Origin: Treponema primitia
GTDB lineage: Bacteria > Spirochaetota > Spirochaetia > Treponematales > Breznakiellaceae
Direction of reading: 5' to 3'
Assembly (NCBI RefSeq): GCF_046533075.1
Contig: NZ_JAJQRB010000001.1
Coordinates: forward strand, 1 to 62,166
Length of the DNA stretch: 62,166 bases
Shown here: piece by piece, positions 5,521 to 58,824 of the stretch
Layout of the letters: every line of letters starts with the position of its first letter
How positions within the stretch are numbered: position 1 is the first letter of the stretch
Position numbers and translations under genes: made by a program
The notes under the pieces: generated by a model
Seen by the model: only the letters and a program-made list of their open reading frames with translations
Database searches by the model: none
Told to the model about the DNA's origin: nothing

Positions 5521-6831
5521 TTATTTTTCTCCGAAGGGAGGGAATTTCTGCTCAATCTTATCCCGGTCGATCCGGAACCCCTCAAGGTTGATTAAAAACC
5601 GGACCACACTGGCCCGATGGATATGCTTGTCGACGGGCTGGCCATCGGTGATGTAGACCGCTTCTTTTCCATCCGAAAATAGGGCGCTGATCACATTTCC
5701 CACCCGGACGGTTTCGTCCAGCTTGGTAATCACCACCGACTGGTAATTGAAGGGGGCAAATTGCCGGAGTATCTCCCGCATGTCGCTGTATTTGGTGGTG
5801 GCGGCCAAGGCTAGGTGTACCTCCGCCGAGGTCCCGCAGACATCCAGGAACTGCTTCATTTCCGCGAGTTTTACCGTATCCCGGGGGCTCTTGCCGATGG
5901 TATCAACCAGTATCAGGTCGACGTCATTCTGATAAAAGGCGATGGTCTTCCGGAGCTCATCGTTGGTATTTACATAGGATACGGGAATCTCCATGATCTG
6001 ACCGTACTTTTCAAGCTGCTCCTTGGCGGCGATGCGGTATCCGTCGATGGTGATCATCACTACCCGGAGGGGCGCCCCTCCCCAGCCGTCCACCCCATAG
6101 GCGGCGGCCAGTTTGGCGATGGTGGTGGTCTTTCCAACCCCGGTGGGGCCCACCAGTACCATGATCCGGGGTCCCCGGCGCGGGAGGGATGGCCTGCTAT
6201 TGAAACTTTCGGTATGTATCCTGACGGTTTCCCCTATCCATTCAACTACCCTATCCTGGACCGCATCATAGTCTTCCAGCGCATCCAGGGAAAATTCCTT
6301 CCGTACCCGGTCTAACATGGCCTTGGTATAGGCGGGGGAAAAATCATTCTGGTAGAAAACTTCCTCCAACCTGCCCAGGGTTGGGTGTTCCTCCTGGGGT
6401 CCCCTAAAAGGGTGGGCGTCGATCTTTTCCGTAAGGGTCTTAATCTCATTGAGCAATTTCTGCATGGTAGGATCGGGTTGTTTTGTAGAGGCCGCCGCAG
6501 TGGCGAGAAGCTTTTTCTTCTCCTCCTCAAAATCCAGAGGTTGGTTGGGTACATCAATCTGGCTAGTCTGACTAGTCACATTCGGTTGCGCCGCCATCTG
6601 AGAAGATTGCCGGGCTGAGCTTATGCCGTAAGCGCCGGCGGCATAGCGGAGATCCGAGGAAATATAGCCCGTAACTTCTACCCCGTCCCGGGAAAAGAGG
6701 CCGCCAAAGATCCCCCCTATACGGACGGTCCGGTAGTTCATCACCTTAGCCCTTTCCCCGTATTTCAAGCGTATTTTTTGTAAACAGTCGGCGTAGGTTG
6801 AGCCCTGTTCTATAAATTGTTCCACAGACAC
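5521..6831 (-). CDS. flhF: Flagellar biosynthesis GTPase FlhF (SRP-type)
   Basis: 436 aa with G1 motif MVLVGPTGVGKTTTIAKLAA, DTIG, and an SRP54-type GTPase domain. Confidence 0.9.
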   Translation of the reverse strand: MSVEQFIEQGSTYADCLQKIRLKYGERAKVMNYRTVRIGGIFGGLFSRDGVEVTGYISSDLRYAAGAYGISSARQSSQMAAQPNVTSQTSQIDVPNQPLDFEEEKKKLLATAAASTKQPDPTMQKLLNEIKTLTEKIDAHPFRGPQEEHPTLGRLEEVFYQNDFSPAYTKAMLDRVRKEFSLDALEDYDAVQDRVVEWIGETVRIHTESFNSRPSLPRRGPRIMVLVGPTGVGKTTTIAKLAAAYGVDGWGGAPLRVVMITIDGYRIAAKEQLEKYGQIMEIPVSYVNTNDELRKTIAFYQNDVDLILVDTIGKSPRDTVKLAEMKQFLDVCGTSAEVHLALAATTKYSDMREILRQFAPFNYQSVVITKLDETVRVGNVISALFSDGKEAVYITDGQPVDKHIHRASVVRFLINLEGFRIDRDKIEQKFPPFGEK

Positions 6832-6845
6832 TTATGCTTTCCTCC

Positions 6846-8960
6846 TTAAACCTTCACCTTTTCTTCACTTTCCACGCTGATTTCTCCAACCGCTTCCACG
6901 GTAACATCGGCTACCAACTCGGGTACTGAAAGCACCACCAGATCCGGCAGTTCCCGTTCCGTGGAGGACTTAACCAGATACCGGGCCGCCTCGGAACAGA
7001 GGACGATGGGGTACCAACCCTGGTCCTGTACCGCAGCCACCGTCCGGGAAAGGGCCTTTATCCAACTAATCCTGGTGGAGGGGTCCATGGCGGACATGAT
7101 ACCCGCGGCGGTTTCCACGGCGCTGTCCAGGATCTTCTGTTCCAGGCTCTGGCTTATGGTGAGTACCCGAAGCACCCGGTCATCGGTGGCGTACTGCAGG
7201 CATATCTGCCGGCTTAAGGCCTGCCGGGCCTTTTCGTTGAGGAACTGCATATTTTTGGCTGCCTTAGCTGCCTGGCCGTAATCCGCCAGGGCTTCCAGAA
7301 TAGCCACCATATTGCGGATAGAGACCTGCTCCCGGAGCAATGCCTGAAGCACCTTTTGAATTTCCCCAAGGCTGAGTGCCTTCTGGGCTTCCTCCACCAC
7401 TGCGGGGTAGCTTTTCTTAAGGGCGTCCAGAATCTCCTGGGTATCCTGACGACCCAGGATCTCCGCGGCATGGCGCTTGATAATATCCGTTAAATGGGTG
7501 GCGATAATCGAGGGAGGATCAACCACGGTATAACCCGCCCGTTCCGCCTCATCCCGTTTATCCTCGCTTACCCAGAGGGCAGGAAGACCGAAGGTGGGGT
7601 CCCGGGTTTTTTCCCCGGGCAGCTCATCCTTCACCCCCCCGGGATTGATACAGAGGTAGTAACCCATGCGTATCTTGCCCCGGCCCACGTCTACACCCTG
7701 GATCTTAAAGCAGTACTCCGAAGGTTCCAGCCGTATATTGTCGATGATCCGTATCCGGGGAATAACCAGCCCCAGGTCCAGCCCGGATTCCCGGCGAATC
7801 CGGTGGACCCGTTCCAGGAGCTCCGCCCCCTTCTCCCGGTCCACCAGGGGGATGAGTCCGTAACCAAGCTCCAGGGACAGGGGGTCCAGGGGCACTATGG
7901 GGGACATATCTTCGCTTTCGGGTTTGGCCTTCTTGGCATCCGCAGTTTTTGCCGCCGCAGTATCCCGCTTGGTCTTCCGCCGACCCAGGCGTACCGCTAA
8001 TACCACCAGGAGGGCGGCCATGGGAATGAGCACGTACCAGGGAAAGCCCGGCAGCAGGGCAAAGCCCCCAAGGACACCGGCGCCTATCCAGTAGATACGG
8101 GCGTCCCGGGAGAACTGTTCCGAAACATCCTCCCCAAAGGTTCCGTTGGAAACCGACCGGGTAACGATGATACCCGTGGCGGTGGAAATGAGCAGGGCAG
8201 GAAACTGGGATAACAGGCCGTCCCCGATGGAGAAGGATATATAGGTACCGATGGCCACCGTGATGGGTTCACCGTGGATCAGGGTTCCGATGACGATGCC
8301 CCCAATGACATTCACCACCGTGATGAGTATGCCCACCTTAACGTTCCCGGAGATAAACTTACTGGAACCGTCCATGGCGCCGTAGAAGTCAACCTCCCGC
8401 TGGAGATCGTTTTTCCGGGCAATGGCCTCTTCCTCGGTGATGGCCTGGGAGTTGTACTCCGCTTCAATGGCCATCTGTTTCCCCGGCAAAGCATCCAGGG
8501 CAAACCGGGCGGCCACTTCCGCGATACGGGTGGCGCCCTTGGTGATAACCACCGCCTGCACCGCGATGATGATGATAAAGATAACAAAGCCCACCACCAG
8601 ACCTTCGGTACCGCCGGAGCCGACCACGAAGGACGAGAAGGCCCGGACCATGCGGCCGTCGAAAGCGGTTCCCCGGGTCAGGATGAGCCGGGTGGAGGAG
8701 ACGTTCAGGGCCAGGCTGAACACGGTTGACACCAACAGTATGGTTGGGAAGATACTGAAGTCCGTAGCCTTCCGGGTATAGAGGACGATAAGGAGGATCA
8801 GCAGGGCCAGAACCAGGTTCATGGCCATCAGGGCGTCCAGGAGTACCGTGGGCAGGGGGATGATCAGCATCATCACCACCGCCACCACCGCCACCGCCAT
8901 GACGAGTTCCGTACTGTTCCCAAAAAAGGTTTTCCGCGCCGTGCCGCTTTGGTCAGACAT
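6846..8960 (-). CDS. flhA: Flagellar export apparatus protein FlhA
   Basis: 704 aa with multi-TM N-terminal domain and a FHIPEP-type cytoplasmic domain (…KRHAAEILGRQDTQEILD…). Confidence 0.92.
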   Translation of the reverse strand: MSDQSGTARKTFFGNSTELVMAVAVVAVVMMLIIPLPTVLLDALMAMNLVLALLILLIVLYTRKATDFSIFPTILLVSTVFSLALNVSSTRLILTRGTAFDGRMVRAFSSFVVGSGGTEGLVVGFVIFIIIIAVQAVVITKGATRIAEVAARFALDALPGKQMAIEAEYNSQAITEEEAIARKNDLQREVDFYGAMDGSSKFISGNVKVGILITVVNVIGGIVIGTLIHGEPITVAIGTYISFSIGDGLLSQFPALLISTATGIIVTRSVSNGTFGEDVSEQFSRDARIYWIGAGVLGGFALLPGFPWYVLIPMAALLVVLAVRLGRRKTKRDTAAAKTADAKKAKPESEDMSPIVPLDPLSLELGYGLIPLVDREKGAELLERVHRIRRESGLDLGLVIPRIRIIDNIRLEPSEYCFKIQGVDVGRGKIRMGYYLCINPGGVKDELPGEKTRDPTFGLPALWVSEDKRDEAERAGYTVVDPPSIIATHLTDIIKRHAAEILGRQDTQEILDALKKSYPAVVEEAQKALSLGEIQKVLQALLREQVSIRNMVAILEALADYGQAAKAAKNMQFLNEKARQALSRQICLQYATDDRVLRVLTISQSLEQKILDSAVETAAGIMSAMDPSTRISWIKALSRTVAAVQDQGWYPIVLCSEAARYLVKSSTERELPDLVVLSVPELVADVTVEAVGEISVESEEKVKV

Positions 8961-8987
8961 TAAAATCTACTCCTTACAGAAGAAGAA

Positions 8988-9120
8988 TATAACCACAGAG
9001 CACACAGAGCTTGCACAGAGGACACAGAGGAAAAGACAGAAAGAAGAATTTTAAAAACCTCTTCCCCTTTCCCCCTCCGTGTCCTCTGTGTTCTTCCCTC
9101 TGCGCCCTCTGTGGTTACTC
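8988..9120. repeat. Palindromic intergenic repeat element R1 (arms AACCACAGAG...CACAGAGGACACAGAGG / CCTCCGTGTCCTCTGTG...CTCTGTGGTTA; purine run - AATTTTAAAAA - pyrimidine run at apex)
   Basis: Imperfect ~45-bp inverted repeat in the flhB-flhA intergenic gap. Same family as the copies at 10325-10437 and 20780-20830. Confidence 0.7.
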
Positions 9121-9138
9121 TTCTCTCCATCGTTTCTC

Positions 9139-10539
9139 CTATGCCCCAAGGCCGGCGTTGCGGCGCCGGTCTTCGTTCAGCCGGTATACGTGGGCTAATA
9201 CATCAGCCACGGCCCGGTAATAGGTTTCCGGTATGACTTCCCCCACCTCGGTCTCAGCATAGAGCGCACGGGCCAGGGGTTTGTTTTCCACCACCGGTAC
9301 ATCGTTGTCCTCGGCTATGCGGCGAATCCGCAGGGCCAGTTCGTCCTCGCCCTTGGCGCTTACCATGGGGCCGTCCATCCCCGGCTTGTATTCCAGGGCC
9401 ACCGCAAAGTGGGTCGGGTTGGCGATAACCACATCCGCCTGGGGAACCGTAATAGCAATATTCCGGGTCATCAGTTCACGCATTCTTTGCCGCAGCCGGG
9501 ACTTGATCATCGGGTCCCCTTCGTACATCTTCCGTTCTTCCTTCACTTCCTGCTTGGACATCTTTAAGGATTCCCGGTACTGCCAGCGCTGGAAAAGCAT
9601 ATCCGGTATGGAAAGGAGGAGCAGCAGTAACGCTGAGATGATAAGCATCCTGATGGCCAGGGACGCTACGGTGGTCACCCCTAACCAGAGCCTGGCGGTT
9701 TGGAGATTCGCCAGTTGTTTGATCTCCGAACGGATTAGGAAGAAGGCCACGGCGCCGATGATAGCCATCTTAACGATGGACTTAGCGATATTGAAAAGCC
9801 CTTCCATAGAGAAGAGGGTTTTCTGAAAGTAACGGCCCAGCCGGGGCACTACCTTGGAAAAGTCCGGGGTCAGGGGCTTGGTGGTAAAGAGGAAACCGGT
9901 CTGCACCACATTGGAAAAAATCCCCGCCGCCATGGCCACCAGCACGATGGGCAGGGCCAGCCGGGTCAGGTAGTTAAAGAAGGCCACCGCCACCACCCGA
10001 TCCTTTATGGGGTCCAGCTCGGAGGCCCGGAGAAAGTAGAAACGCAGCATTTCTACGCAAGTCCTGAGCATAGAGGGGGCCAGGAAAAAAATAGTAAGCG
10101 CCGGCAGGAGCAGGACCAATGCGCCGATAAGCTCCTGGCTCTTGGCAACCCGCCCCTCCTCCCGGGCCTTCTGTATCTTATACTCGGTGGGTTCTTCAGT
10201 ACGCCCCTCATCCTCCGCGGCGAACCACTGCAGGTCTATTTTGGAAGGAATATCGTTGTTTGCGGACTTTTTTCGTTCGCCATTTCCTTGAAAAAAATCA
10301 AAAATATAATCAGAGAAATCAAAAGAATAACCACAGAGGACACGGAGGGAAGAACACAGAGGAAGAGGAGGAAGAGAAGAAGAAGAAAAATTTATATCTT
10401 CCCTCTGTGTCCTCTGTGAAAGCGAACCGAAGGTTCGATCTCTGTGTTCTCTGCGGTTATTCTTCATTTCTCTGCGGTTATTCTTCATTTCTCTGTGGTT
10501 ATTCTTCATTCCTCTGCGGTTATTCTTCATTCCTATCAT
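9139..10539 (-). CDS. flhB: Flagellar export apparatus protein FlhB (annotated start overlaps fliR stop, ATGA; N-terminal ~95 aa encoded by repeat DNA)
   Basis: Conserved IDLQWFAAEDEGRTEEPTEYKIQKAREEGRVAKS... and NPTH autocleavage motif (VIANPTHFAVAL). The 5' 240 nt consist of a dispersed palindromic repeat plus four 21-bp tandem units. Confidence 0.85.
   Translation of the reverse strand: MIGMKNNRRGMKNNHREMKNNRREMKNNRREHRDRTFGSLSQRTQREDINFSSSSLPPLPLCSSLRVLCGYSFDFSDYIFDFFQGNGERKKSANNDIPSKIDLQWFAAEDEGRTEEPTEYKIQKAREEGRVAKSQELIGALVLLLPALTIFFLAPSMLRTCVEMLRFYFLRASELDPIKDRVVAVAFFNYLTRLALPIVLVAMAAGIFSNVVQTGFLFTTKPLTPDFSKVVPRLGRYFQKTLFSMEGLFNIAKSIVKMAIIGAVAFFLIRSEIKQLANLQTARLWLGVTTVASLAIRMLIISALLLLLLSIPDMLFQRWQYRESLKMSKQEVKEERKMYEGDPMIKSRLRQRMRELMTRNIAITVPQADVVIANPTHFAVALEYKPGMDGPMVSAKGEDELALRIRRIAEDNDVPVVENKPLARALYAETEVGEVIPETYYRAVADVLAHVYRLNEDRRRNAGLGA
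10325..10437. repeat. Palindromic repeat element R2 (AACCACAGAGGACACGGAGGGAAGAACACAGAGG ... GAAGAAAAATTTATATCTTCCCTCTGTGTCCTCTGTG) plus CGAACCGAAGGTTCG mini-palindrome
   Basis: Same family as R1 and R3. Lies inside the 5' end of the flhB ORF, in frame and without stop codons. Confidence 0.7.
10449..10532. repeat. 4 x 21-bp tandem repeat (CTCTGCGGTTATTCTTCATTT), translated on the minus strand as (MKNNRRE)x4 at the annotated FlhB N-terminus
   Basis: Four near-identical 21-bp units read directly. The unit resembles the terminus of the R1 repeat (CTCTGTGGTTACTCTTC). Confidence 0.8.
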
Positions 10540-11354
10540 GACCCGCCCCCGATCTGTGTCCCAATCTGCATGTACAGGGACTCGATGTTTTGGAAACCCA
10601 TGTCCACTACCCGGGCGAAGGCTTCGGTCATGAAGGGCATGGTGGCCATGATGAGGACGAAGGCTACGGTGATTGATATGGGGAAACCTTCGGTAAGGAT
10701 ATTGATCTGCGGGGCCGCCTTGGAGATGAGCCCCGTGGACAGTGAGGTAAGGAAGAGGGTCCCCAGTATGGGCATACTGATCACGATGGCGTCCATAAAC
10801 ACCCCGGTAAGCCCGTTCAGGAGGGTTTCTATCACCGCTTCATGGCCCATAACCAGAGAATAGGCGCTGATCGACTGGATGGAACGCCAGAACCCGCCCA
10901 GGAACAGTTCGGAAAAGCCGCCTATGGAAAGGAATACCAGCATGGCCACCAGGTTCAGGTATTGACCCATTAGGGGGTTTTCTATTTGAGCAAGGGGGTC
11001 GAAGGTTTCAGAGGCGCCGAAGCCCATCTGGAGGGAGAAGAACTGACCCGCCGTGGAGAAGGCGGAGAAGATCAGGGTAAGGTAGAACCCGATGATGATC
11101 CCCACGATGGCCTCCCCAATGAGGAGAAACACAAAGTACAGACCGAAGGGCGCAAGATTCCAGCCCGCAGCAAGGGCGGTGGGAAAGGCGGTAAAGGCGG
11201 CAAACCCCGCCAGGGCAATCTTGGCAATCTGGGGTATGCCGTCCGAAGACAGTAACGGTGCAGTTTCGATCATCGCCAGAGCCCGGACGGCAATCAGGAG
11301 AAACGCCGGTGCACCGGCTAAAATTTCGTTAAGGAACTGCGCCTCAATCACCAA
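10536..11354 (-). CDS. fliR: Flagellar export apparatus protein FliR
   Basis: 272-aa polytopic membrane protein. Position and sequence are typical of FliR. Confidence 0.85.
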   Translation of the reverse strand: MVIEAQFLNEILAGAPAFLLIAVRALAMIETAPLLSSDGIPQIAKIALAGFAAFTAFPTALAAGWNLAPFGLYFVFLLIGEAIVGIIIGFYLTLIFSAFSTAGQFFSLQMGFGASETFDPLAQIENPLMGQYLNLVAMLVFLSIGGFSELFLGGFWRSIQSISAYSLVMGHEAVIETLLNGLTGVFMDAIVISMPILGTLFLTSLSTGLISKAAPQINILTEGFPISITVAFVLIMATMPFMTEAFARVVDMGFQNIESLYMQIGTQIGGGS

Positions 11355-11385: not shown

Positions 11386-11655
11386 TTAACGCGCCATAGC
11401 AGGAATCATCCTGAATAACTGCACCGTATAATCCCCCAGGGAAGTAAACATCCAGCCCCCCAAAAGGCCCAGTACCAGAAGTATGGTCAGCACCTTTGGT
11501 ACAAAGGTCAGGGTCTGCTCCTGGATAGAGGTGGTGGCCTGCAGTATAGCTACTATCAGGCCCACGGTAAGGGCGGAAAACAAAAGCGGCGCCGCCAAAA
11601 GCAGGGTCTCAAATATGCCCCCCCGGAGAAGGGCCGTAATGTCGCCGATACTCAT
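11386..11655 (-). CDS. fliQ: Flagellar export apparatus protein FliQ
   Basis: 89 aa with two TM helices (…LLAAPLLFSALTVGLIVAILQATTSIQEQTLTFVPK…). Confidence 0.85.
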   Translation of the reverse strand: MSIGDITALLRGGIFETLLLAAPLLFSALTVGLIVAILQATTSIQEQTLTFVPKVLTILLVLGLLGGWMFTSLGDYTVQLFRMIPAMAR

Positions 11656-20779: not shown

Positions 20780-20830
20780 AACTCTGTGTTCTCTGTGTTC
20801 TTCCCTCCGTGTCCTCCGTGGTTAATTTTC
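20780..20830. repeat. Half-copy of the palindromic repeat family, R3 (CTCTGTGTTCTCTGTGTTCTTCCCTCCGTGTCCTCCGTGGTTAAT)
   Basis: Matches the right arm of R1 (9070-9117). Lies in the divergent promoter region between the flagellar operon and the epimerase gene. Confidence 0.65.
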
Positions 20831-30586: not shown

Positions 30587-30668
30587 GCGGCCATGGTGGA
30601 ACTGGTAGACACGCCAGCTTGAGGTGCTGGTGCCGAGAGGTATGGAAGTTCGAGTCTTCTTGGCCGCA
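30587..30668 (+). tRNA. tRNA-Leu (anticodon GAG), long variable arm; CCA not encoded
   Basis: Acceptor stem GCGGCCA/TGGCCGC. Anticodon stem CCAGC/GCTGG with loop TTGAGGT, a long variable arm, and T-arm GGAAGTTCGAGTCTTCT. Confidence 0.85.
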
Positions 30669-30675
30669 ACGAATG

Positions 30676-30702
30676 CCCCGCTGAAAAGCGGGGTTTTTGT
30701 TT
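30676..30702 (+). terminator. Rho-independent terminator after tRNA-Leu (CCCCGC-tgaaaa-GCGGGG-TTTTT)
   Basis: Perfect 6-bp GC stem followed by a T-tract. Confidence 0.75.
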
Positions 30703-30824: not shown

Positions 30825-30888
30825 GCTGGAGGGTTCGAGTCTTCTTGGCCGCAACGAATGCCCCGCCTATTTGGCGGGGTTTTTTTAT
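30825..30888 (+). repeat. Direct duplicate of the tRNA-Leu 3' half plus a variant terminator (attL/attR-like remnant)
   Basis: GCTGGAGGGTTCGAGTCTTCTTGGCCGCAACGAATGCCCCGCC-tattt-GGCGGGG-TTTTTTT. The variable arm is deleted relative to the intact tRNA. Confidence 0.8.
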
Positions 30889-31463: not shown

Positions 31464-31612
31464 TGGACGATACGCTGTTTGAAGAAATTCTCAATGAAAT
31501 TGATTTGATGTCCTCTGAAGAATATTGGGCTTTTTATCGGGAAGCTAAGAAGTTACCTGATTTTAACCTGCTTATTCCGGCTGATTTGAACACAAATTCC
31601 GGCAACACTTGA
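31463..31612 (+). CDS. Small ORF (49 aa) translationally coupled to the DUF3990-like gene (TAATG overlap); 3' end runs into the IS21 terminus
   Basis: MDDTLFEEILNEIDLMSSEEYWAFYREAKKLPDFNLLIPADLNTNSGNT*. The stop codon lies inside the IS21 terminal repeat. Confidence 0.4.
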   Translation: MDDTLFEEILNEIDLMSSEEYWAFYREAKKLPDFNLLIPADLNTNSGNT

Positions 31613-31736
31613 ACATGAAACCGGAACATTTGAACATCGTACCTACTCCAGGACAAGGTATACCACAGGCCGGTAAAATTGTGCAAGCATGTTTTAGCGG
31701 ACTCTTATGCGCCGTAGGCGCCGGTCAAAGGAGGGG

Positions 31737-32480
31737 CTAATCAGGGTCCCTGTCGGCGAGAGTTTTTCTCATGGAATCCCCCGAAATGTTGAACTTATGG
31801 GCGTTGTGGACTACCCGGTCCAGGATGGCGTCGGCTAGAGTGGGGTCCGGAAATAGGCCGTGCCAAGCGGAACAGGGAAGCTGTCCTGAGATAATCGTCG
31901 AGGCGGCATCGTAGCGCCGTTCAAAGAGCTCCATGATTTCATGACTCTCCTCCAGGGTGAACTTCCGCAGCCCCCAGTCGTCCAGAATGAGCAGCGGAAC
32001 TGTCGCGAGGCGGTTACGAAGCAGGGTGAACCGGCCCTCCATCTGGGCATCGGAAAGCTGTACGAAGAAGTCGGGAACCCTGATATAGGTCACCGGGGTA
32101 CCTTGGTAACAGGCGGCGCGGCCGATGGCGCTGACAAGGTAGGTCTTGCCGACCCCGGTAGGACCCGTGATAAGGATATTCTGTTTGTTCCTGAGGTATG
32201 ATCCTTCGCACAAACGCTGTACATCGGGTTTTGAAATGCCGTGTTTTCCCTGGTAGTCAATGTCCTCAATGACCGCCGGGAACCGGAAGCCCGCCTGGGT
32301 CACCAGTCGGTTAATCCGCTTGGAGCGTTTGGCAAGCCATTCGGCCTCGACCAGAAGTGCCAGCCGTTCGTCGAAGGGGAGCGTGTCCGGACCCGGCTGT
32401 TCCTGCTGTTCGATGAAGGCGGCGGCCATGGCCGACAGGTGGAGGTCGTGCAGTTGATTTATCGTTGTTTTGTTAAGCAT
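31737..32480 (-). CDS. istB: IS21 helper ATPase IstB
   Basis: Walker A ILITGPTGVGKTYLVSAIG and Walker B LLILDDWG. The probable start is MLNKTTINQ at 32480. The longer annotated ORF upstream is an out-of-frame read-through of the istA 3' end. Confidence 0.85.
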   Translation of the reverse strand: MLNKTTINQLHDLHLSAMAAAFIEQQEQPGPDTLPFDERLALLVEAEWLAKRSKRINRLVTQAGFRFPAVIEDIDYQGKHGISKPDVQRLCEGSYLRNKQNILITGPTGVGKTYLVSAIGRAACYQGTPVTYIRVPDFFVQLSDAQMEGRFTLLRNRLATVPLLILDDWGLRKFTLEESHEIMELFERRYDAASTIISGQLPCSAWHGLFPDPTLADAILDRVVHNAHKFNISGDSMRKTLADRDPD

Positions 32481-34117
32481 TGAACGCCTCCTCAGCCAGG
32501 GATGGACCGTAGTATTCCTGTCCCCGGATGTTTTGATGGGTAATAGGGGGTGCAGCCTGCTCCTCCTGTTTCTTAAACAGCCGTTCAAAATACTTATGGG
32601 TATAGATGTTGGCGGCCAGGGCTTGCTCACAGACTTGTTCCATGTATTGCCGGGGTGCGTTCTGCCCCATGCGGAGGATACCGGCGCAGGTTTTAAATGA
32701 CTGTTCCGGATGTTCCCGCTGTTCCATAAGCCAGGTGATATAGGCCTCCGTTTTCGGCCCCGTCTTGGCCGCCCAGGAGCGGAACCGTTCAGGCGACCAG
32801 TCGGCGACCGCCTTGTGTTTCTCGGGCATATGCTCAAATCGGTGGGTTCTTTCCAGTCTTGGTTGAAAACATCACTTAAGATCATTTTTCAAGAAAGTTG
32901 TATTATTTTTCATTCAGCTTTTCTCGGTAATCAACTAACTTTGGGAAGAACCAATCGGTGGTATACCGGCTGCGCTTCTCGTAATTACGGATATGGCAGG
33001 AAATGCGTTCCCCCTCCGAAAACACCTCAATAGTGCGTATTGTAGCCCGTATTTCGACCTGTTTCCCCGCAAACGTGTAGGGCACGCTGTAGTAATACGA
33101 ATCGAACTGGACATGATAGTCGAAGCCGACCTTAGCCAGCTTATGTTCGGCGTACTCGTACCGGGACGGGGGAAGCGCCCGTAACTGCCCTTTCTCAAAT
33201 TCCAAGAAAGCCTCCTGCCGATTCCCCGGGATTTTTGCGAACGGCTGAGTGTTGAGGACTTCGAGCTCCGCCCTCACCGCCTTCCACAGTTCCGGGAAGG
33301 AAAGAAACTGCCGGTCCCGCAATTTCGCAATGATTCTGCGTTCCACGATTTGTACACCGGTTTCTACCGGCGCCTTGTCCCGGGGAGCTCTGGACCGGGC
33401 CGGGATGATGACCGCCCCATAGTACCGGGCCAGCTCGTGATAGGTCTTGTTAAGATCCGGGTCGTAGTATTTTGGTTTGATGACTGCCGTCTTGGTATTA
33501 TCTGGCACAAGAATCGCTGCGGCCCCGCCGTAGTACTCAAAGGCGTTTACATGGGCCGCGCTCCACGATTCCTGTCCCATGTTCAGGAACGGTTCCACAT
33601 ACAGGTAAGAACTGGCCGGGAGGTCTGCTACAAACAGGTATACTTTTACTGCTTCCCCCCGAGAATTGGTATACTGCATGGTCAGCCCTGCCCAGTCAAC
33701 CAGCATTCGTTCCCCGGCTTTGTAGGATTTATGCATATACACCTCATTCTGTTTACGGAACTTCCGATACCGCTCGCAGAATGGAGAAAGCATATATCCG
33801 TTGGGGTGGGCGGTTTTGTACTCCTCCCACAGGAGGGTTAGGGTGACCCCCTTCTTCTGCATTTCCCGGTGGACCCATTCCAGGTCCGGTTCGTCCCGCT
33901 GCGCCCCCGCCTCTTTGACCGCCGGGTACAGGACCTTGCTCAGCTCCTTGTTCCGTATGGCCTTAAGGTCGATGATGCCCGCCTCCCGGGCCCGCGCCAG
34001 AATGGCGTTCACATTCCCCAGGGAGCGGCCGGTGGCCCCGGCTATTTCCCGCTGTGTCATTCCTGCGTCCTTGAGCCGAAGGATTTCCCGTGCTTTTTCC
34101 ATCTCTACTCTCCTCAT
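32473..34117 (-). pseudogene. istA: IS21 transposase IstA, disrupted: N-terminal part (32903..34117) and C-terminal part (32473..32829) lie in different frames and are separated by a ~106-bp insertion
   Basis: N-part has the HTH (MTQREIAGATGRSLGNVNAI) and a DDE core. C-part has MPEKHKAVADWSPERF...HPEQSFKTCAGIL, the conserved IstA C-terminus, in another frame. Confidence 0.8.
32847..32952. mobile_element. MITE-like ~106-bp insertion inside istA with imperfect TIR (GGTTCTTYCC...) and flanking 9-bp direct repeat AATCGGTGG
   Basis: Direct repeats aatcggtgg at 32838-32846 and 32953-32961. The AT-rich insert starts GGTTCTTTCCAG and ends ...TTTGGGAAGAACC. Confidence 0.55.
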
Positions 34118-34671
34118 GATGTCGCTCCTTGGTTTGTTCCCGGAAGCGTACGATATTTTGGAGGGTTTGATGTTCAAATGTTCCGCAAGCCTGTTCAAGT
34201 GTTCCGCAAGCCTGTTCAAGTGTTCCGCATGGATGTTCAAATGTCGCCGCAAGCGTGTTCAAGTGTTGCCGTTTTTCTGTTCAAGTATTTCCGCAAGCCT
34301 GTTCAAATGCGCCGGAATTCATGTTCAAATGTCGCCGCAGAATGCAGTCATTATTAATGAAGCGTACCGGCGCGGGGACATTGAGACGAATATCATCCAT
34401 AACATCAAACCCTTGGCAGAGCATAGCAAAGAGCGCGGCGTCCTCACTGTAAAGGAAGCCACCCAGGTCCTTAATGAGCAAACATGGAAATTGGTATGGT
34501 CCGATCAGTGGATGCATTACATCTATAATTTGACGGCGGCTCAGACGAGGATGCGCTTCAGACTCCTTGTTAACACCGAATGGGATACTTAAACGACACT
34601 ACAGCATAATGTAAGGGTTTACATTAAAGCATAGAATATCGCCCCAAAGGGGTAGTGCTGATAGGTTTGCT

Positions 34672-37139: not shown

Positions 37140-37187
37140 TATGCTTATCGGTAAGTGGATAAATTGGATCTAAAAGGAATACGCAGA

Positions 37188-40100
37188 ATGAAACAATTGT
37201 ATATTTTCCTTATTATTTTGGCTTTTTTGGAATTCTTTGGCTGTGTGAGCCAGAGTCGGGATACATCGGGGGACCTCACCTCTGGTGAACGGGGGCTGGA
37301 GGTGATTGTTGAAGGGGAAGCTGAACCTGATGTGGAAGTGTTTCTACAGTTAGGGCACGCAGGCGGGGCACTGGATGCAGCGTTTAGTCCTGATGAAAGC
37401 CACATTATTTCAGCCTCACAAGATACCACGCTGAAGCTATGGGATATCGCAACTGGACGTGAAATTCGGACGTTTTCCGGACATTCAGGCGGAGTACGGT
37501 CAGTTGCATATAGCCCTGACGGAAAGCTTATCGCTTCGGGGGCTTCTGATAAAACCACGAAGCTGTGGGATGCCGTAACCGGGCGTGAAATCCGAACTAT
37601 AACAGAAGATTCCTCCATAAGTTATGTGGCTTTTAGTCCTGACGGTAAATGGCTGGTTACAAAAAGTTCTAATAATACCACGAAACTATGGGATATCGCC
37701 AATGGACAGGAAATCAATGCTTTCAACGGTGTAGTGGAATTTAATCCCGGCTGGGACCAAATTGCCCAATGGGATAGGGATGGAAATATTACAATCCGGG
37801 ACATCACAAGCGACCGTGAAATTCGTATTTTTCCGGGATATTCAAAGGGCATTACCGCCCTCGCGTTCAGTACCGATGGGAAACAGATTGTCTCAAGTTA
37901 TGAGGATAGGACCGTAAAAGTATGGAATATCGAAAACGGGCAGGAAACTCAAAGCTTCGTAATAAAAAAGAAGCAGGGAGAAGGAACCGGCATGACGCCA
38001 ACCATAAGATGTGTGGCTTTTGCGCCTGATGGGAAACGAATTGTCACAGGAGATGATGATCGTAAAATGAAGCTATGGGATAATAGTCAGGAAACCCAGA
38101 CCTATGAAGGTCACTGGGTTACGATCGTGGATGCAAATGGAGGGGAGACATCAAGTGACACCGGGCATTTTAAACGGCTTCAATCAATTTCATTCAGTTC
38201 CGATGGACGGCAAATTCTTTCAAGAAGTGATGATAGGGTAATATGCTGGGATACAGACAGCGGCCGTGAAATAGCCAATTTTAAAATAGCCGACCAGATA
38301 GCTTCCATAAAATTCAGTGCTGATGAAAAAAAGATCATTACAGGAGATTTATTTGGGAATCTTGAGTTGTGGGATTTTATTGACGGACAAAAATTACAGT
38401 CATTCAAAAAAAGCATGGTAGGAATGTCAAGCGTCGCATTTAGCCCTGACGGTTCTCAGATTGTTTTTAGTTCATCGGATGATAACACGGTAAAATTTTG
38501 GGATATTACAGTCGGAAAGTTAATTCGATTTTTTTCAGGTATTAATAAATATGACAAGATTAAAGGGATACGGTCGGTAATATTCAGCCCCAGCGGCAAA
38601 CAAATTGCTACAGGATCTTTAGGAAATGTAAAGTTGTACGATGCCGCAACAGGAGAGGAAATTCGTGTTTTTTCCGGGCAAAATTGGCCAGAGTCCATTG
38701 CCTTCAGTCCGGACGGAACAAAACTCGTTTCAGCATCCGATGACGGTACAATAAAACTGTATGATGTTGTAACCGGCGGTGAAATTGGCAATGTGGTAAA
38801 AAGGAGCTTTACAGGGGAATATCGTATTTTTGCGGAACACCCGGATGAATCCGTTGTTACGGCGGCCTTTAGTATTGATGGCAAACAAATCCTTTCCTGC
38901 GGTTCCTCGGGCACAGTGAAAATATGGAATTCAGCCGATGGACGCGAAATTCGTTCATTTCAAGCAAGCGAGACAAATAGTTCCGGATTAAAGGATCTGC
39001 TGTTTTCTGCAGCCTTTAGCCCTGATGGAAGCCGGCTTGTTACGGGATCTCGTTATGGTACTGTTAATCTTTGGAATACCTCAAGTGGACAGAAAATACG
39101 AACTTTAGGGGATTTGAGTAATAGTATTTTCGCTGTGGAGTTCAGTCCCGATGGAAAAAAAATTATTGCAGGGGATTACAATGTCTTGAAATTATGGGAT
39201 GCGGAAACCGGCCAGATAATTCGGAATTTCTCCGGTCATTCCGGTTTTATTCATTCCATAGCGTTTAATCCCGGCGGGCAGCAAGTAGTTTCAATTTCAA
39301 GTGATGGTACCGCCCGCATTTGGAATATTGAATCCGGTAACGAAATTGTCAAATTAGTTAATTATGCAGGCAAGGATACCCAAATAACATCCGGCGGCCG
39401 CGGGCTTACGGTGGAATTAGAAGATCAGGTAGGCTCGGTGGACAGCGAATGGATTTCCGTTACCCCCGATGGCTATTATAATGCTTCGCCCCGCGGCGAC
39501 CATTACTTCAATGTCCGTATCGGTAATACTGTATCCGGCATAGATGCCTACCGATCGATCTTCTACAACCCCGATGTAGTCCGGGCTCGTCTGCAAGGAA
39601 GGCCTGATCCTGCCTCCAAGGGTAAGGTTACTATTCAGCAGGCCGGTTTATTCAGCCCCCCAATTATTACCATACAGGAACCAGGTGTAAATAATATTGT
39701 TACCACCGCTACGACAAATTTATCGGTCGTCATCGAATCCAGTCGGCAGCCTATCAGTACTATCAAACTCCTCGTGAACGGCAGACTTGTCGGGCGTGAT
39801 GAATTGATCGCCGTCACCGGAGGTAACCTTACCCCTGAGAGAGCCAGCCTGACCGTCACCGGCGGCCAAAGGGTCATAAATTTCCAGCTCCCGGTGGGCC
39901 TTGATCCCGGCCTTAACCGCATTGAGGTGGTGGCCTTTAACGGTTACTCGGACAGCCGGAAGTGGGTGGATATTACCCGGCAGACCCGGACCGGGGAGCA
40001 AGCTGCTCCTCCTAATCTGTGGATTCTTGCGGTGGGTGTGAATCAATATAGCAGTTCCCAAATCAACAGCCTGGATTACTGTGTTGCCGATGCACGGGAA

Positions 40101-40736
40101 CTAATTGATTCCTTCTCTGCCCAGGAAGGTCGGCGTTATGGGAAGGTACACAGCCTCCTCATCGCCGATGGCGCCTCCATCGTCCCAACGGCGGCCAATA
40201 TCAGGGATAACCTTAAATTTCTCTCCGGGGCGGGACCCAAGGATGTGGTCCTGCTTTTCCTCGCGGGCCACGGGGTAAGCGATAATTCGGGAACCTTTCT
40301 CTTTCTTCCCAGAGATGCGGCCCTGACGGCGAACGGTGGGGTAAACCCTGCAAAGGCAATCTCCAACAATGATATCATTTCTGTACTGGATGCGCCCGGC
40401 AATCGGCTAGTGTTCATTGATGCCTGTCAATCCGGTGGGGTGGATAATGACCGCCTGGTCAGATCCCTCATGGACACCAACGCCTTCGTCTTTACTTCCA
40501 GCAGGGGGAACGAGAAGTCCCAGGAGCGGTCCGAATTAGGGCATGGGGTATTTACTTACAGCGTTATTCAGGGTTTAAAGGGGCTCGTTTCGGCCCAATC
40601 CGCCAATAACAGCATCAGCGTACTTGAATTGAGCGGTTTCGTGTCAACCAATGTCCTCAGGATTACTTCGGACCAACAGCACCCCAGCGCCTACTCCCTG
40701 GGGTTCTACGACTTTCCGATGGTGGAAATGCCATAA
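37188..40736 (+). CDS. Secreted/lipoprotein WD40-repeat protein with C-terminal caspase-like (peptidase C14) domain
   Basis: Signal peptide MKQLYIFLIILAFLEFFGC. About 14 WD40 repeats (…GHSGGVRSVAYSPDGKLIASGASDKTTKLWD…). C-terminal caspase fold with the His/Cys dyad (VLLFLAGHGV … LVFIDACQSGG). Confidence 0.85.
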   Translation: MKQLYIFLIILAFLEFFGCVSQSRDTSGDLTSGERGLEVIVEGEAEPDVEVFLQLGHAGGALDAAFSPDESHIISASQDTTLKLWDIATGREIRTFSGHSGGVRSVAYSPDGKLIASGASDKTTKLWDAVTGREIRTITEDSSISYVAFSPDGKWLVTKSSNNTTKLWDIANGQEINAFNGVVEFNPGWDQIAQWDRDGNITIRDITSDREIRIFPGYSKGITALAFSTDGKQIVSSYEDRTVKVWNIENGQETQSFVIKKKQGEGTGMTPTIRCVAFAPDGKRIVTGDDDRKMKLWDNSQETQTYEGHWVTIVDANGGETSSDTGHFKRLQSISFSSDGRQILSRSDDRVICWDTDSGREIANFKIADQIASIKFSADEKKIITGDLFGNLELWDFIDGQKLQSFKKSMVGMSSVAFSPDGSQIVFSSSDDNTVKFWDITVGKLIRFFSGINKYDKIKGIRSVIFSPSGKQIATGSLGNVKLYDAATGEEIRVFSGQNWPESIAFSPDGTKLVSASDDGTIKLYDVVTGGEIGNVVKRSFTGEYRIFAEHPDESVVTAAFSIDGKQILSCGSSGTVKIWNSADGREIRSFQASETNSSGLKDLLFSAAFSPDGSRLVTGSRYGTVNLWNTSSGQKIRTLGDLSNSIFAVEFSPDGKKIIAGDYNVLKLWDAETGQIIRNFSGHSGFIHSIAFNPGGQQVVSISSDGTARIWNIESGNEIVKLVNYAGKDTQITSGGRGLTVELEDQVGSVDSEWISVTPDGYYNASPRGDHYFNVRIGNTVSGIDAYRSIFYNPDVVRARLQGRPDPASKGKVTIQQAGLFSPPIITIQEPGVNNIVTTATTNLSVVIESSRQPISTIKLLVNGRLVGRDELIAVTGGNLTPERASLTVTGGQRVINFQLPVGLDPGLNRIEVVAFNGYSDSRKWVDITRQTRTGEQAAPPNLWILAVGVNQYSSSQINSLDYCVADARELIDSFSAQEGRRYGKVHSLLIADGASIVPTAANIRDNLKFLSGAGPKDVVLLFLAGHGVSDNSGTFLFLPRDAALTANGGVNPAKAISNNDIISVLDAPGNRLVFIDACQSGGVDNDRLVRSLMDTNAFVFTSSRGNEKSQERSELGHGVFTYSVIQGLKGLVSAQSANNSISVLELSGFVSTNVLRITSDQQHPSAYSLGFYDFPMVEMP

Positions 40737-52251: not shown

Positions 52252-53889
52252 TTATTGTATATTGATATAGTACCGTTCCAGATATGCAATTTGCCGGCGG
52301 GAATCATTGTACCGGCTGCTCTGGGGGTACTCATTTACCAGACGGCGATAGTAGTCCAGGGCTAAACGGATATTCCGGGAAGGCCCCTGTTTTTCGTAAA
52401 GTTGTGCGTAGAGCCAGAGCGCTTCGTCGCTGCCCCGGGGAAACTGCGCCATAAACTGATTCAGTACGGCAATGGCCTGGGGAACATGATCCGCCCCAAA
52501 TTCTTCCCGAGCCCTGCGCAGGTACTCTTCGGCGCCGGCGCCCGGGGGAAGGATCAGCGGTGGCTCAAGCTCCGCAGTTTCGTTTACAGCCGCAGACGGC
52601 ACGGCGGGAACAGACCCCGGCGAAACCACTGCAGGAGCGGCACTACCGGGAACAACGGCAGCCGGCACGACAGGAACAGCCCCCGGCGAAACCACTGCGG
52701 GAGCGGCCCTGCCGGGAACAACGGCAGACGGCACGACAGGAACAACCCCGGGTGAAACCACTGCGGGAGCGGCCCTGCCGGGAACAACGGCAGACGGCGC
52801 GGCGGGAACAGACCCGGGCGAAACCACTGCGGGAGCGGCCTTACCCGGCACGACGGCTGGCGGTACGGCTTCTGATGCAGGGAGCGGCTCTCCGGGAATG
52901 GTGGGCCAGCGGGGTTCGGCAATCACCCTACCCCGGTCTGCCGGAGCGCCGAAGCTGAGCGAGGCCAGGGGCGCCTCTTCGACAATAACGCTTACCAAAT
53001 CGTTGATGATATAATCCCGGATAAAATCCTGGCGGTAGAATTTGAGTTCATAGGTCCCGGCTTCGGCGGCCAGGAAAACAAAGGTCTGACCTTCGGAATC
53101 CAGGCGCCGGGAATTGTAGTTTATACCCCGCTTGGAGGCGGATTCCCCCAGATAGACCCAGCCGGTTCCCCGGAACGGAACCTCCAGGGTTTGCCCGGTC
53201 ACGGCCCGGACGATCCGGGAAGAAACGCCTTGAGGAATCGCCGGAATAGGCGCCGGCGTGAAGGTCGGAGGATTCCGGGCGGGGGGATCAGGGATGGGGT
53301 TTACCGGAAGCGGTATGGGTTCCCTGACACGGGGAGGCGGCGGTATGGGTTCCGTGGGCCTGACGATACGCGGCGGCGGAGGCGGAATAACCGGTTCCGG
53401 CGGCGGCGGTTCGGGCGGGACGGCAAGCTCAGACTGGGCAGTCTCCTCCGGCAAGGTCCCTTCCAGTGAAGACTCTTCCGGCGGGGACTCTTCCGCCAGG
53501 ACCAGCGCCGGCGCAAGGGACGGCAGATCCGGGGCAAGCGGCTCGGGAAGGGGTTCCGCCAGAACTATGGCGCTTTCCCCGGGGGGCGGATCAGGAAGGA
53601 AGACCTCGCCGAATTCTAAAAACGGCTCATCCAACTCAGCCGGCCAGCCTTCGGAGGGGGCGCCGGGGGGGGGTAAGGCCAGGGACGGATCATCATCCTC
53701 TACCTGGGACCAGTCATAATCCACATCCCCGTTGTCGTCATAATCCCCGTAATCTTCATAGTCTTCATCGTCCTCATAGGGTTCCTCTTCCGGAGGGGTC
53801 ATATTCACCTTGGGGAGGCCCTTACAGGACCAGGACAGGAGGCAACAGATTATCAGTCCCAGGGGAAAAAGGTGTTTTACGGGGTTCAC
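52252..53889 (-). CDS. Proline-rich secreted protein with internal 22-aa tandem repeats and a C-terminal TPR-like helical domain
   Basis: Signal peptide and acidic DYEDY run. Four copies of AVVPG(R/K)AAPAVVSPG(S/V)VP(A/V)VPS. Helical C-terminus. Confidence 0.55.
   Translation of the reverse strand: MNPVKHLFPLGLIICCLLSWSCKGLPKVNMTPPEEEPYEDDEDYEDYGDYDDNGDVDYDWSQVEDDDPSLALPPPGAPSEGWPAELDEPFLEFGEVFLPDPPPGESAIVLAEPLPEPLAPDLPSLAPALVLAEESPPEESSLEGTLPEETAQSELAVPPEPPPPEPVIPPPPPRIVRPTEPIPPPPRVREPIPLPVNPIPDPPARNPPTFTPAPIPAIPQGVSSRIVRAVTGQTLEVPFRGTGWVYLGESASKRGINYNSRRLDSEGQTFVFLAAEAGTYELKFYRQDFIRDYIINDLVSVIVEEAPLASLSFGAPADRGRVIAEPRWPTIPGEPLPASEAVPPAVVPGKAAPAVVSPGSVPAAPSAVVPGRAAPAVVSPGVVPVVPSAVVPGRAAPAVVSPGAVPVVPAAVVPGSAAPAVVSPGSVPAVPSAAVNETAELEPPLILPPGAGAEEYLRRAREEFGADHVPQAIAVLNQFMAQFPRGSDEALWLYAQLYEKQGPSRNIRLALDYYRRLVNEYPQSSRYNDSRRQIAYLERYYINIQ
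52590..52860. repeat. 4 x ~66-bp tandem repeat inside the Pro-rich protein gene
   Basis: Near-identical units GGAACAG(A/C)CCCCGGCGAAACCACTGC(A/G)GGAGCGGC(A/C)CT(A/G)CCGGGAACAACGGCAG(C/A)CGGCACGACA. Confidence 0.75.
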
Positions 53890-54314: not shown

Positions 54315-54560
54315 AGTATCATTCTAATAGAAAGCTGCTTTTCCGGCTACTGTACGGATAATCTTCTTTCTGTTATATTATACATATAATGGATATAGTG
54401 ATTAACCCCCGGGGTAATGGCGCCTGTCCACTTTGCGACCAGAACAGCATTTGCCGTATTCAGGGTACCCTCTTCAAAGCCATGGAAGAATTTTCCGCCA
54501 AGGACGATCCCATGGAAGTGGTGGTTTATTCCTGTCCCCAATTCCAGGAGAAACTCTAAG

Positions 54561-55646
54561 GTGAACGAACGTCTTGAATCACTGCTGCGGCGGTATGATG
54601 AACTATCGGGCCTAATCCAGGACCCTGAACTGGTGAAGGATCAGAAAAAATACCGCGATACCATGAGGGAATATTCCCAACTGGATACCATTGCCGGGAC
54701 TCAGAAGGAAATCGAAGAAATTTCCGCCCAGCTTGCGGACGCCAAAACCCTGATCCAGGATGAAAAGGATCCGGATATGCGGGAAATGGCCAAGGAAGAA
54801 AGCCGGGAACTGGAAACCCATCTCAAGGATGCGGAGGATCGCCTCAAATTTCTGCTGATCCCCAAAGACCCCCTGGACGAAAAGAATATCATCATGGAAA
54901 TCCGGGCGGGTACCGGCGGCGACGAGGCGGCCCTCTTTGCGTCGGACCTCTACCGCATGTATTCCCGGTTTGCGGAAACCAAGAGCTGGAAGTTTGAAAT
55001 CATGAGCTCCAACGAAACCGAGCTTGGGGGCTTTAAGGAAATCGTTTTTTCCATCAGCGGTAATAATGTGTACGAAAATCTCCGCTACGAGTCGGGGGTA
55101 CACCGTGTTCAGCGGGTCCCCGCCACCGAAGCTTCGGGCCGTATCCACACCTCCGCAGTAACCGTGGCGGTGCTCCCCGAAGCGGACGAGACCGAAATCG
55201 ACATACGTACCGAAGACCTCCGTATCGACGTGATGCGTGCCGGCGGTCCCGGGGGCCAGTGCGTCAACACCACCGATTCTGCGGTACGGATCACCCATAT
55301 CCCCTCCGGGGTGGTGGTCCAATGTCAGGATGAAAAGAGCCAGATTAAAAACAAGGCCAAAGCCATGCGTGTACTCCGGGCACGGATCTACGAAATGGAG
55401 GAAGCCAAAGCCGCCGCCTCCCGTTCGGAGGCCCGGAAAAACCAAGTCGGCTCAGGGGACCGCTCCGAGCGGATCCGTACCTACAACTTCCCCCAGAACC
55501 GACTTACGGATCATCGTATCAACCTTACCCTCTATAAACTGGACCTTATCATGCAGGGCGATGTGGAAGAACTCTTCGACGCCCTCAAACTTTCCGCCCG
55601 GGAAGAATTACTCCAAACCACAGCATCGGTAACCGCCGCTTCTTAA
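54561..55646 (+). CDS. prfA: Peptide chain release factor 1 (GTG start)
   Basis: GGQ motif ([21 protein letters not shown]) and PxT-type recognition region. GTG at 54561, 10 nt downstream of AGGAG. The longer 409-aa ORF is probably an upstream overextension. Confidence 0.9.
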
Positions 55647-55671
55647 TATGTATAAGATCCGGGGGGAAAGT

Positions 55672-55792
55672 AAAAGACCGCAAAGGCGCAGAAGGCGAAT
55701 AAGGATGATGAAAAAAAGAAGAAATAGAGAGAAGAAAAATTTCCTCTCCCTCCCCTCCCCTTCTTCGACTTCTGTGCCTTTGCGGTTACCCA
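55672..55792. repeat. Palindromic intergenic element R4 (arms ACCGCAAAGGCGCAGAAGGCGAATAAGG / CTTCTTCGACTTCTGTGCCTTTGCGGTTACC; purine run - AAAAATTT - pyrimidine run apex)
   Basis: Same architecture as R1/R2 with related arms. Inserted between prfA and prmC. Confidence 0.65.
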
Positions 55793-55805
55793 ATTCCTTT
55801 GTCTT

Positions 55806-58775: not shown

Positions 58776-58824
58776 AGCTATTGAACAAATTTTCCGTATT
58801 GACTATGCTATCCCCATGCTTCCG
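58776..58824 (+). repeat. 49-bp direct repeat, left copy (GCTATTGAACAAATTTTCCGTATTGACTATGCTATCCCCATGCTTCCGG)
   Basis: Perfect 49/49 identity with 61982-62030. Begins 72 nt after the relA stop. Confidence 0.9.

Follow-up and report, generated by a model that had tools for sequence, protein, structure and literature searches.

A family of long palindromic repeats, complete copies of which lie within the fliR-flhB-flhA and prfA-prmC gene clusters, is present in a 62,166 nt stretch of Treponema primitia DNA (assembly GCF_046533075.1, contig NZ_JAJQRB010000001.1, positions 1 to 62,166; hereafter the window). The three complete copies, R1, R2 and R4, are missing from the corresponding sites of the closest relatives, and their arms are so depleted of stop codons that open reading frames (ORFs) extend through them. 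We consider it rather probable that these copies, together with a solo arm (R3), represent a non-autonomous selfish foldback repeat which is tolerated in translationally coupled operons because it is translated through, and not a dedicated regulator. The four copies would then have been inserted into the T. primitia genome as members of a wider hairpin-repeat class, and those surviving within coupled operons would be the ones that are still translated. Reading-through by ribosomes, if it occurs, would explain how hairpins of −50 to −87 kcal/mol can sit in essential coupled operons without polarity, and would make palindromic DNA a source of new N-terminal protein segments.

Copies, empty sites and reading frames

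The flagellar export operon occupies the minus strand of the window (fliQ 11386-11655, fliR 10536-11354, flhB 9139-10539, flhA 6846-8960 and flhF 5521-6831), and prfA (54417-55646) and prmC (55806-56660) lie on the plus strand. R1 (8988-9120), a complete palindromic element recognized by its fold, its inverted repeats and alignment, lies in the flhB-flhA spacer and has arms of ~9 nt CACAGAGGN units, a 9 nt period also reported for an R1 arm by Tandem Repeats Finder (TRF). R2 (10323-10464), recognized by fold and translation, is likewise complete and lies in frame within the 5' end of flhB; a mini-hairpin (CGAACC GAA GGTTCG, 10422-10440) is nested in one of its arms. An array of 4.0 tandem copies of 21 nt (10447-10531, minus strand; TRF), which had not been mentioned in the initial annotation of this DNA, repeats the R2 terminus (sense strand ATGAAGAATAACCGCAGAGAA) and encodes MKNNRRE repeats at the FlhB N terminus. 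The third complete element, R4 (55677-55786), is found in the prfA-prmC spacer and belongs to a sister subfamily; its architecture is that of R1 and R2 but its units are different (ACCGCAAAGGCGCAGAAGG), being of the types CGCAAAGG and CGCAGAAGG, and its termini read ACCGC...GCGGT. R3 (20782-20829) is a solo arm of the alpha type described below and has no partner. It occupies the intergenic region, flanked by divergent genes, that precedes the minus-strand flagellar operon, and lies ~110 nt upstream of this operon's first gene.

When folded and compared with shuffled sequence, R1 (8982-9126) gave −86.6 kcal/mol on the minus strand (z −14.4) and −63.2 on the plus strand (z −9.9), R2 (10318-10465) gave −62.2 kcal/mol on the minus strand (z −7.3) and −70.5 on the plus strand (z −9.7), and R4 (55665-55800) gave −49.8 kcal/mol on the plus strand and −61.0 on the minus strand, with z about −7. 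R3 alone has no stable fold (z −0.8 and −2.0 on the two strands) and is 92% complementary over 39 nt to the left arm of R2. The initial annotation had described a dispersed, palindromic family resembling repetitive extragenic palindromic (REP) sequences and miniature transposable elements with inverted repeats (MITEs), with long imperfect hairpins, R1 in the flhB-flhA spacer, R2 inside the 5' end of flhB, R3 as a half-copy and R4 as a relative, and in all these respects our results bear it out. The similarity between copies also withstood formal alignment. R1, R2 and R3 could be aligned as members of a single family, with the right arm of R1 being 86% complementary to the left arm of R2 over 49 nt, and a MAFFT alignment of all arms, including those of related contigs, gave the consensus GAAGAAAAGAnTAACCACAGAGGACACAGAGG...ACACAGAGGACACAGAGGAAGA. 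The motif AACCRCAGAG is present seven times in the window against 0.20 expected from dinucleotide shuffles, and CACRGAGGRCRCRGAGG (≤1 mismatch) six times against 0.00 expected, with 6/6 falling within R1, R2 or R3. The arms fall into two consistent types, alpha (..GAGGGAAGAACACAGAGG) and beta (..GAGAT-TACACAGAGG), both in the window and in the contigs L246 and L002, and R1 lies in the opposite orientation to R2 when the sense strand is taken as reference. The consistent alpha/beta asymmetry of the arms argues for descent from a master copy and against independent hairpin formation.

Comparison with related sequences revealed sites without the elements. The prfA-prmC spacer measures 11 nt in T. 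primitia ZAS-1 and ZAS-2 versus 159 nt in the window; PrmC of ZAS-1 is 90% identical to that of the window, which in turn is 100% identical to MFP3040235.1/WP_411045625.1. The closest contig, L244 (93% FlhB core identity), is without R1, its flhB-flhA spacer being only 16 nt long (GGGGCATAAGGAGTAGCGTGTAATG), and neither this contig nor L245 or L003 has an element at the fliR/flhB junction; in all three the flhB ATG overlaps the fliR stop (ATGA) and the protein is of 376-377 aa. Copies at the flhB 5' end are carried by the more distant contigs L001, L002 and L246, and that of L001 is judged orthologous to R2 because it contains the same nested mini-hairpin. An R1-like copy follows flhB in L246, a further copy occupies the fliQ-fliR spacer of L002, and in L067 one copy is nested within another. 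On these sequence comparisons R1, R2 and R4 are to be regarded as insertions, the empty sites being shown in the closest relatives. A class member of ~50 nt (AAACCACAAAGGACACAAAG...CTTCGTGTCCTTAGTGATT) was observed after a relA-type gene, at a convergent junction, in T. primitia ZAS-2 (L312, 13262-13330), so that ZAS-2 carries the family at other sites.

The arms of the complete elements have an unusual composition, with 0-4 T residues in the left arms and 0-1 A residues in the right arms of R1, R2 and R4 (the nested insert of R2 excepted). A 5' arm nearly free of T followed by a 3' arm nearly free of A contains almost no stop codons in any frame, and because the element is palindromic this is true of both strands. 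Stop codons in all six frames number two in R1, two in R2 and four in R4 versus 11-13 in shuffles, and four of the six frames are open in each element. The same tendency is seen in 74 elements from other phyla, which have 3.04 open frames versus 1.38 in shuffles.

All of the complete operon-internal copies lie within sense-strand ORFs. The flhB ORF (9139-10539, minus strand) has 466 codons and its ATG overlaps the fliR stop (ATGA); approximately 85 N-terminal codons are repeat-derived, and the Pfam FlhB domain begins at residue 112. The only canonical starts at R2 are this ATG, at 10539, and the ATGs of the 21 nt repeats, and the stretch from the hairpin to the conserved IDLQWF motif contains no in-frame ATG, GTG or TTG, either in the window or in L001, L002 or L246. 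In the last three the only start is an ATG or GTG located at the fliR stop, and the frame stays open from there to the FlhB core. We propose that R2 would be translated in frame and would extend FlhB at its N terminus.

At the remaining operon-internal sites the spacer is covered by a short bridging ORF. That across R1 (8960-9130, minus strand; 56 codons) begins with an ATG 8 nt after the flhB stop, has AGGAG before it (AGGAG-5 nt-ATG) and ends in a TAA overlapping the flhA ATG (TAATG). The ORF across R4 (55648-55809, plus strand; 53 codons) has its ATG 1 nt past the prfA stop, and its terminal TGA overlaps the prmC ATG (ATGA). Across the fliQ-fliR copy of L002 runs an ORF of 42 codons whose start lies 2 nt past the fliQ stop and whose end overlaps fliR as TTGA. 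When the hairpin was kept and flanks and phase were randomized, the chance of a bridging ORF was 0.0097 for R1, 0.037 for R4 and 0.050 for the L002 fliQ-fliR copy, or ~2e-5 jointly. All five independent insertions have an ATG at their sense-side boundary and none has one at the antisense-side boundary, which suggests that selection acted after insertion and that the ATG is not an inherent part of the termini. Our working hypothesis is that, at R1 and R4, ribosomes would enter the short ORF at the ATG just past the upstream stop, unwind the hairpin, keep the spacer translated as far as the overlap with the downstream start and so arrive at flhA or prmC. A pan-bacterial bridging-ORF test yielded suggestive cases (L154, L166, L174, L199, L200 and L250) which we do not rely on, the test being unreliable because of spurious ORFs in GC-rich genomes.

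Distribution of the hairpin class and comparison with known repeats

The family had initially been taken to be genome-specific, a view that its distribution contradicts. The 19 nt terminal signature ACCACRGAGGACACRGAGG matches at least 120 stretches in GTDB contigs (one genome per species), where ~17 chance matches are estimated, and it has at least 120 matches in IMG/VR phage contigs, the reversed sequence giving one; the arm core CCTCYGTGTCCTCYGTG also has at least 120 matches in IMG/VR. Among the matches listed, and by record titles, the genome matches to the 19-mer span at least 12 phyla, the groups represented being Acidobacteriota, Bacteroides/Chryseobacterium, Planctomycetota, Chloroflexota, Desulfobacterota/Geobacter, Gemmatimonadota, Clostridia, Nitrospirae, Alpha-, Beta- and Gammaproteobacteria, Cyanobacteria, Cloacimonadota, Lentisphaerae and Verrucomicrobia/Kiritimatiellales. 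The matches include cultured isolates (Bacteroides hominis, B. nordii and two Nostoc strains), and BLAST located copies in records of B. finegoldii, B. ovatus, Gemmatirosa, Pseudoalteromonas and Nostoc/Calothrix as well, almost none of which fall under an annotated feature. A BLAST search of 5,426 Escherichia coli genomes found no copies.

A partner arm (≥21/30 positions) lies downstream of 49 of the 115 genome 19-mer occurrences versus six in the upstream control. Alignment of 76 elements, of median length 114 nt and with variable centres, gave the consensus A-rich..TT[C/A]ACCAC[AG]GAGG[A]CAC[AG]GAGG. The termini of the class read (AAGAAT..T)TAACCAC[AG]GAGG ... CCTC[CT]GTGGTTA and the arms consist of roughly 9 nt CRCRRAGGN units, other unit types with the same ACCAC start being CACGAAGG, CACGGAGG, CGCAAAGG (as in R4), CGCAGATGAA and CACAGATT. 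As a working definition we took the class to have a 5' terminus ACC[AG]C[AG]GA, a T-poor 5' arm of ~9 nt units and, complementary to it, a 3' arm poor in A that finishes with G[CT]GGT; R1, R2 and R4 all fall within this ACCAC...GTGGT hairpin class, R4 with ACCGC. A metagenome scan with the treponeme-type terminus AGAGAAGAGTAACCACAGA found nine loci, none of them a treponemal operon; further unit types (CACAGATT) are seen among them, and some of the elements start at the TAA stop of the upstream gene. Solo arms of the family occur in Nostoc.

Solo arms were also observed in phage contigs (L013 at 690-708 and 6663-6681, L043, L121 and L259), where purine arms (ATGACCACAGAGGACACAGAGG.., ATGAAGAATTTAACCACAGAGG..) stand at the very start of a gene and pyrimidine arms just before the ATG of the next gene, 1-7.6 kb from the purine arms. 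Such far-apart pairs bracket replication modules (exonuclease, DUF1376, DnaB).

The initial annotation had further supposed that the elements sit preferentially between cistrons of essential operons. This was not apparent in the 57 elements with genes on both sides, which lie beside ordinary genes at 35 tandem, 16 convergent and six divergent junctions.

The same terminus of ~19-30 nt is found in Acidobacteriota, Bacteroides, Nostoc, Planctomycetota, Clostridia, Proteobacteria, spirochaetes and phages, which points to a common class of repeats; phylogenetic profiling offers a way to search for the means by which it spreads. It is possible, although we put this forward only tentatively, that the repeats of the window are local representatives of a repeat superfamily, of which we have found no description, present in at least 12 bacterial phyla and many phage contigs, with nearly stop-free arms, a shared mechanism of spreading and operon copies that become coupling ORFs. 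Its termini would be near-identical ((AAGAAT..TT[A/C])ACCAC[AG]GAGGACAC[AG]GAGG) and its interior free to vary; the near stop-free arms would do little harm to translation wherever an element lands; spreading would depend on a widely shared mechanism, for which a host or phage enzyme recognizing a single-stranded DNA hairpin is a candidate; and copies in operons would gain an ATG and thereby become coupling ORFs.

At the Rfam 15 gathering threshold, only the tRNA-Leu was found in the window and only tRNAs in 16 loci from other phyla, and an E-value search of the window produced, at the elements, only weak hits to models of generic long-hairpin microRNAs and snoRNAs, far below gathering scores. 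Searches of the literature with the exact arm sequences or their translations, and on the topic of termite Treponema repeats, yielded nothing relevant. The class is apparently uncatalogued, in that we found no description of it in Rfam 15 or the searchable literature, which is absence of evidence and not proof of novelty. The elements are invisible to Rfam-based annotation, and they inflate or break gene calls: FlhB calls are of 430-466 aa instead of ~376, and ORFs elsewhere end in ...TTEDTE or ...SSVSSVVK.

Among known systems, the Rickettsia palindromic elements (RPE) are repeats of ~100-150 bp that lie in frame in protein genes and are translated as extra peptide segments (PMC10969869). R2 similarly keeps the flhB ORF intact, as do the copies which L001, L002 and L246 carry there, a purely functional resemblance drawn from the description of RPE. 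In contrast to RPE, the present elements have another host phylum and another sequence, are also common in intergenic spacers, where they are covered by bridging ORFs, owe their stop-free state to the strict T-poor/A-poor asymmetry of the arms, and have a terminal signature found in many phyla, whereas RPE are confined to Rickettsia.

Like MITEs and foldback elements such as Correia/NEMIS of Neisseria and the enterobacterial repetitive intergenic consensus (ERIC), which are of 60-200 nt with conserved inverted termini, a variable centre and no transposase gene, the present elements are short (110-140 nt), have inverted repeats and contain only short repeat-derived ORFs. With Correia/NEMIS and ERIC they also share a dispersed and strain-variable presence, frequent co-transcription in operons and long hairpins; R4 is absent from ZAS-1 and ZAS-2, R1 and R2 from L244, and R2 from L245 and L003. 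They differ in that we found neither a parent insertion sequence (IS) with matching ends nor a clear target-site duplication, in having arms of tandem 9 nt units instead of a unique terminal inverted repeat, and in being spread over phyla and phages instead of one genus.

REP sequences have a 5' GT[AG]G foot beside a short imperfect hairpin and a linked gene for a REP-associated tyrosine transposase (RAYT), and they are reported to have inserted in frame into genes (PMC6006769). The elements resemble REP/BIME/REPIN sequences, whose RAYT is TnpA_REP, in being intergenic palindromic repeats of high copy number close after stop codons. Unlike REP, they have, in the 76 aligned elements and on both strands, a 5' foot ACCAC and a 3' foot GTGGT in place of GT[AG]G, and the single arm R3 has no fold. 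No RAYT was seen among the ORFs scanned (27 in the window and nine in L013 and L259). The cyanobacterial short tandemly repeated repetitive (STRR) heptamers and other small dispersed repeats resemble the present family in having short-period tandem units and very small repeats in hairpins. The two differ in the length of the unit (7 nt in STRR, 9 nt here), in sequence and with respect to the conserved ACCAC termini.

Weighing the alternatives

A number of observations weigh against the interpretation of the elements as selfish repeats tolerated through translation. The first is that translation of the ORFs is deduced from sequence only. In addition, the bridging-ORF criterion was set after the first cases had been seen, and there are only five independent insertions. 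With regard to FlhB, non-canonical starts (ATT or ATA) downstream of R2 are possible, and an out-of-frame ATG at 10283 (minus strand; 10263-10283) lies beside a run of six A residues at 10271-10276. Seven residues in place of six would give a conventional FlhB N terminus (MANEKKSANNDIPSKIDLQWF), so that a sequencing error could be responsible, but the same out-of-frame ATG is present in L001, an independent assembly, which argues against such an error. No FlhB of 100% identity turned up in the protein collection, and flhB may be annotated as a pseudogene.

Nor did we find a transposase, a RAYT or a clear target-site duplication, and the case for the elements being mobile consequently rests on presence/absence, nesting and solo arms. 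Comparison of filled with empty sites gave no consistent target-site duplication: R1 shows perhaps an imperfect duplication of TA(A)GGAG, R4 shows nothing that is clear, and the flanks of the 76 elements are symmetric TT[C/A], not direct repeats. No Y1 transposase was present among the 27 window ORFs scanned or the nine ORFs near repeat arms in the phage contigs L013 and L259, and the only IS among those 27 is of IS21 type, with unrelated TGTTCAAGTG-type ends. Ordinary phage genes occupy the segments that distant arms delimit; the ORFs separating paired elements seem, on inspection by eye, to be ordinary, portal- or structural-like, and the Pfam-scanned ORFs near arms in the two phage contigs are ordinary too (exonuclease, DnaB, terminase). 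Finally, elements elsewhere in bacteria usually begin 5-17 nt after a stop codon and have A-rich and T-rich flanks, so some members of the class may be terminators or 3' stabilizers.

The explanation favoured in the initial annotation was that the hairpins are functional RNA elements affecting stability, processing (e.g. by RNase III) or polarity of the flagellar and prfA transcripts. We consider this unlikely, although the sense-strand folds are very stable, that of R1 in particular, copies do occur at cistron junctions, and REP, ERIC and Correia elements are generally known to affect transcript stability or processing (reviewed in PMC10969869). The same junctions lack copies in the closest relatives, R1 and R2 are in opposite orientation, R2 and R4 fold better on the antisense than on the sense strand, no Rfam family was matched, and hairpins inside ORFs would be kept melted by translation. 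The mismatches within the arms comprise 112 G-T and 113 A-C, and where the direction of transcription could be inferred, 43 wobbles are sense-compatible versus 42 antisense-compatible. The mismatches show no G-U bias toward the transcribed strand, the palindrome being one at the DNA level, and the evidence for a function at the RNA level is weak.

We think it quite improbable that the elements are terminators or attenuators, whether bidirectional intrinsic or Rho-related. The position of members from other phyla past stop codons, the relative rarity of divergent junctions (6/57), the flanks, A-rich upstream and T-rich downstream, and the T-rich tails that follow the copies in phage contig L109 would all suit such a role, but scans found no G+C-rich hairpin with an immediate U tract on the sense strand at R1, R2 or R4, R2 lies inside coding sequence, and R1 and R4 precede the essential genes flhA and prmC, whose starts overlap the stops of the bridging ORFs.

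It is very improbable that the short ORFs are genuine small-protein genes and the palindrome a by-product of coding. Good start contexts, as at R1, coupled stops and an amphipathic peptide layout (e.g. MERRVTTEGAEGRTQRTRRGKGEEVFKILLSVFSSVSSVQALCALWLYSSSV), with the purine arm giving a charged N-terminal half and the pyrimidine arm a hydrophobic C-terminal half rich in Cys, Ser and Leu, would be in keeping with this. Against it, the frame through the element differs (NNHRE in R2 versus VTTEDTE in L246), both arms are conserved as DNA sequence, there are solo arms as well as non-coding copies, and related ORFs are without a Pfam match. Chance or low-complexity purine/pyrimidine similarity, suggested by arms that are compositionally biased and partly of low complexity (GAA runs, TRF), is refuted by motif counts far above the dinucleotide-shuffle expectation, by folding z-scores of −7 to −14, by the 49 nt and 39 nt matches between separate copies and by the reversed-sequence control (one versus at least 120 matches).

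Other repeats and features of the window

Three sites that the initial annotation had listed as arm fragments proved to be something else, even though GCAAAGGCG is over-represented in the window (seven versus 0.64 expected). Those at 61237 and 61908 belong to a different direct repeat of ~30 nt, present in two copies (TAACGCAAAGGCG..TGTCACCAAAT; 61232-61262 and 61906-61936), and that at 62090 is a 9 bp mini-palindrome beside a heptamer array. The ~30 nt repeat lies within the bracket formed by a perfect 50 nt direct repeat, the copies of which (58777-58826 and 61982-62031) are 3.2 kb apart and enclose genes without a confident Pfam match (59227-61145, and 58939-59211 with sub-threshold hits only). 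This arrangement may mark the limits of an integrated element.

A second family of long hairpins, G+C-rich and without an Rfam match, is represented at 61325-61466 of the window, where arms of 42 nt are 90% complementary and are followed by TTTTTT, and in L002 (6630-6760), where the copy lies in the flhB-flhA spacer; the two have a common centre (GGAGACCTACYGGGCTCCG..AGCAGACTC) and different stems.

The IS21-family insertion sequence (31604-34337) comprises istA (32903-34252; HTH and Mu-transposase C-terminal domain) and istB (31737-32885; IstB_IS21). It is unrelated to the hairpin family and has multiple terminal repeats of 21-22 nt (TGTTCAAGTGTTCCGCAAGCC...) at 34181-34337, with inverted copies at 31604-31643. 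The tRNA-Leu (GAG) gene (30587-30668) has its 3' end and terminator hairpin duplicated 185 nt downstream (30648-30701 versus 30833-30886, 83% identical), resembling the att-type duplication at a tRNA integration site.

Repeats were also observed within coding sequences. A 66 nt tandem repeat of 4-5 copies, 68-90% identical (52586-52915), lies within the gene of a 545 aa TPR-containing protein (52252-53889, minus strand), and a 1193 aa protein encoded at 37155-40736 consists almost entirely of WD40 beta-propeller repeats, which explains most of the direct-repeat families found in that region. At the end of the contig (62105-62166), directly 3' of the 9 bp mini-palindrome (GGCAAAGGC GCA GCCTTTGCC), there is a perfect tandem array of the heptamer (CGGCTCA)n, and it was probably this repeat that broke the assembly.

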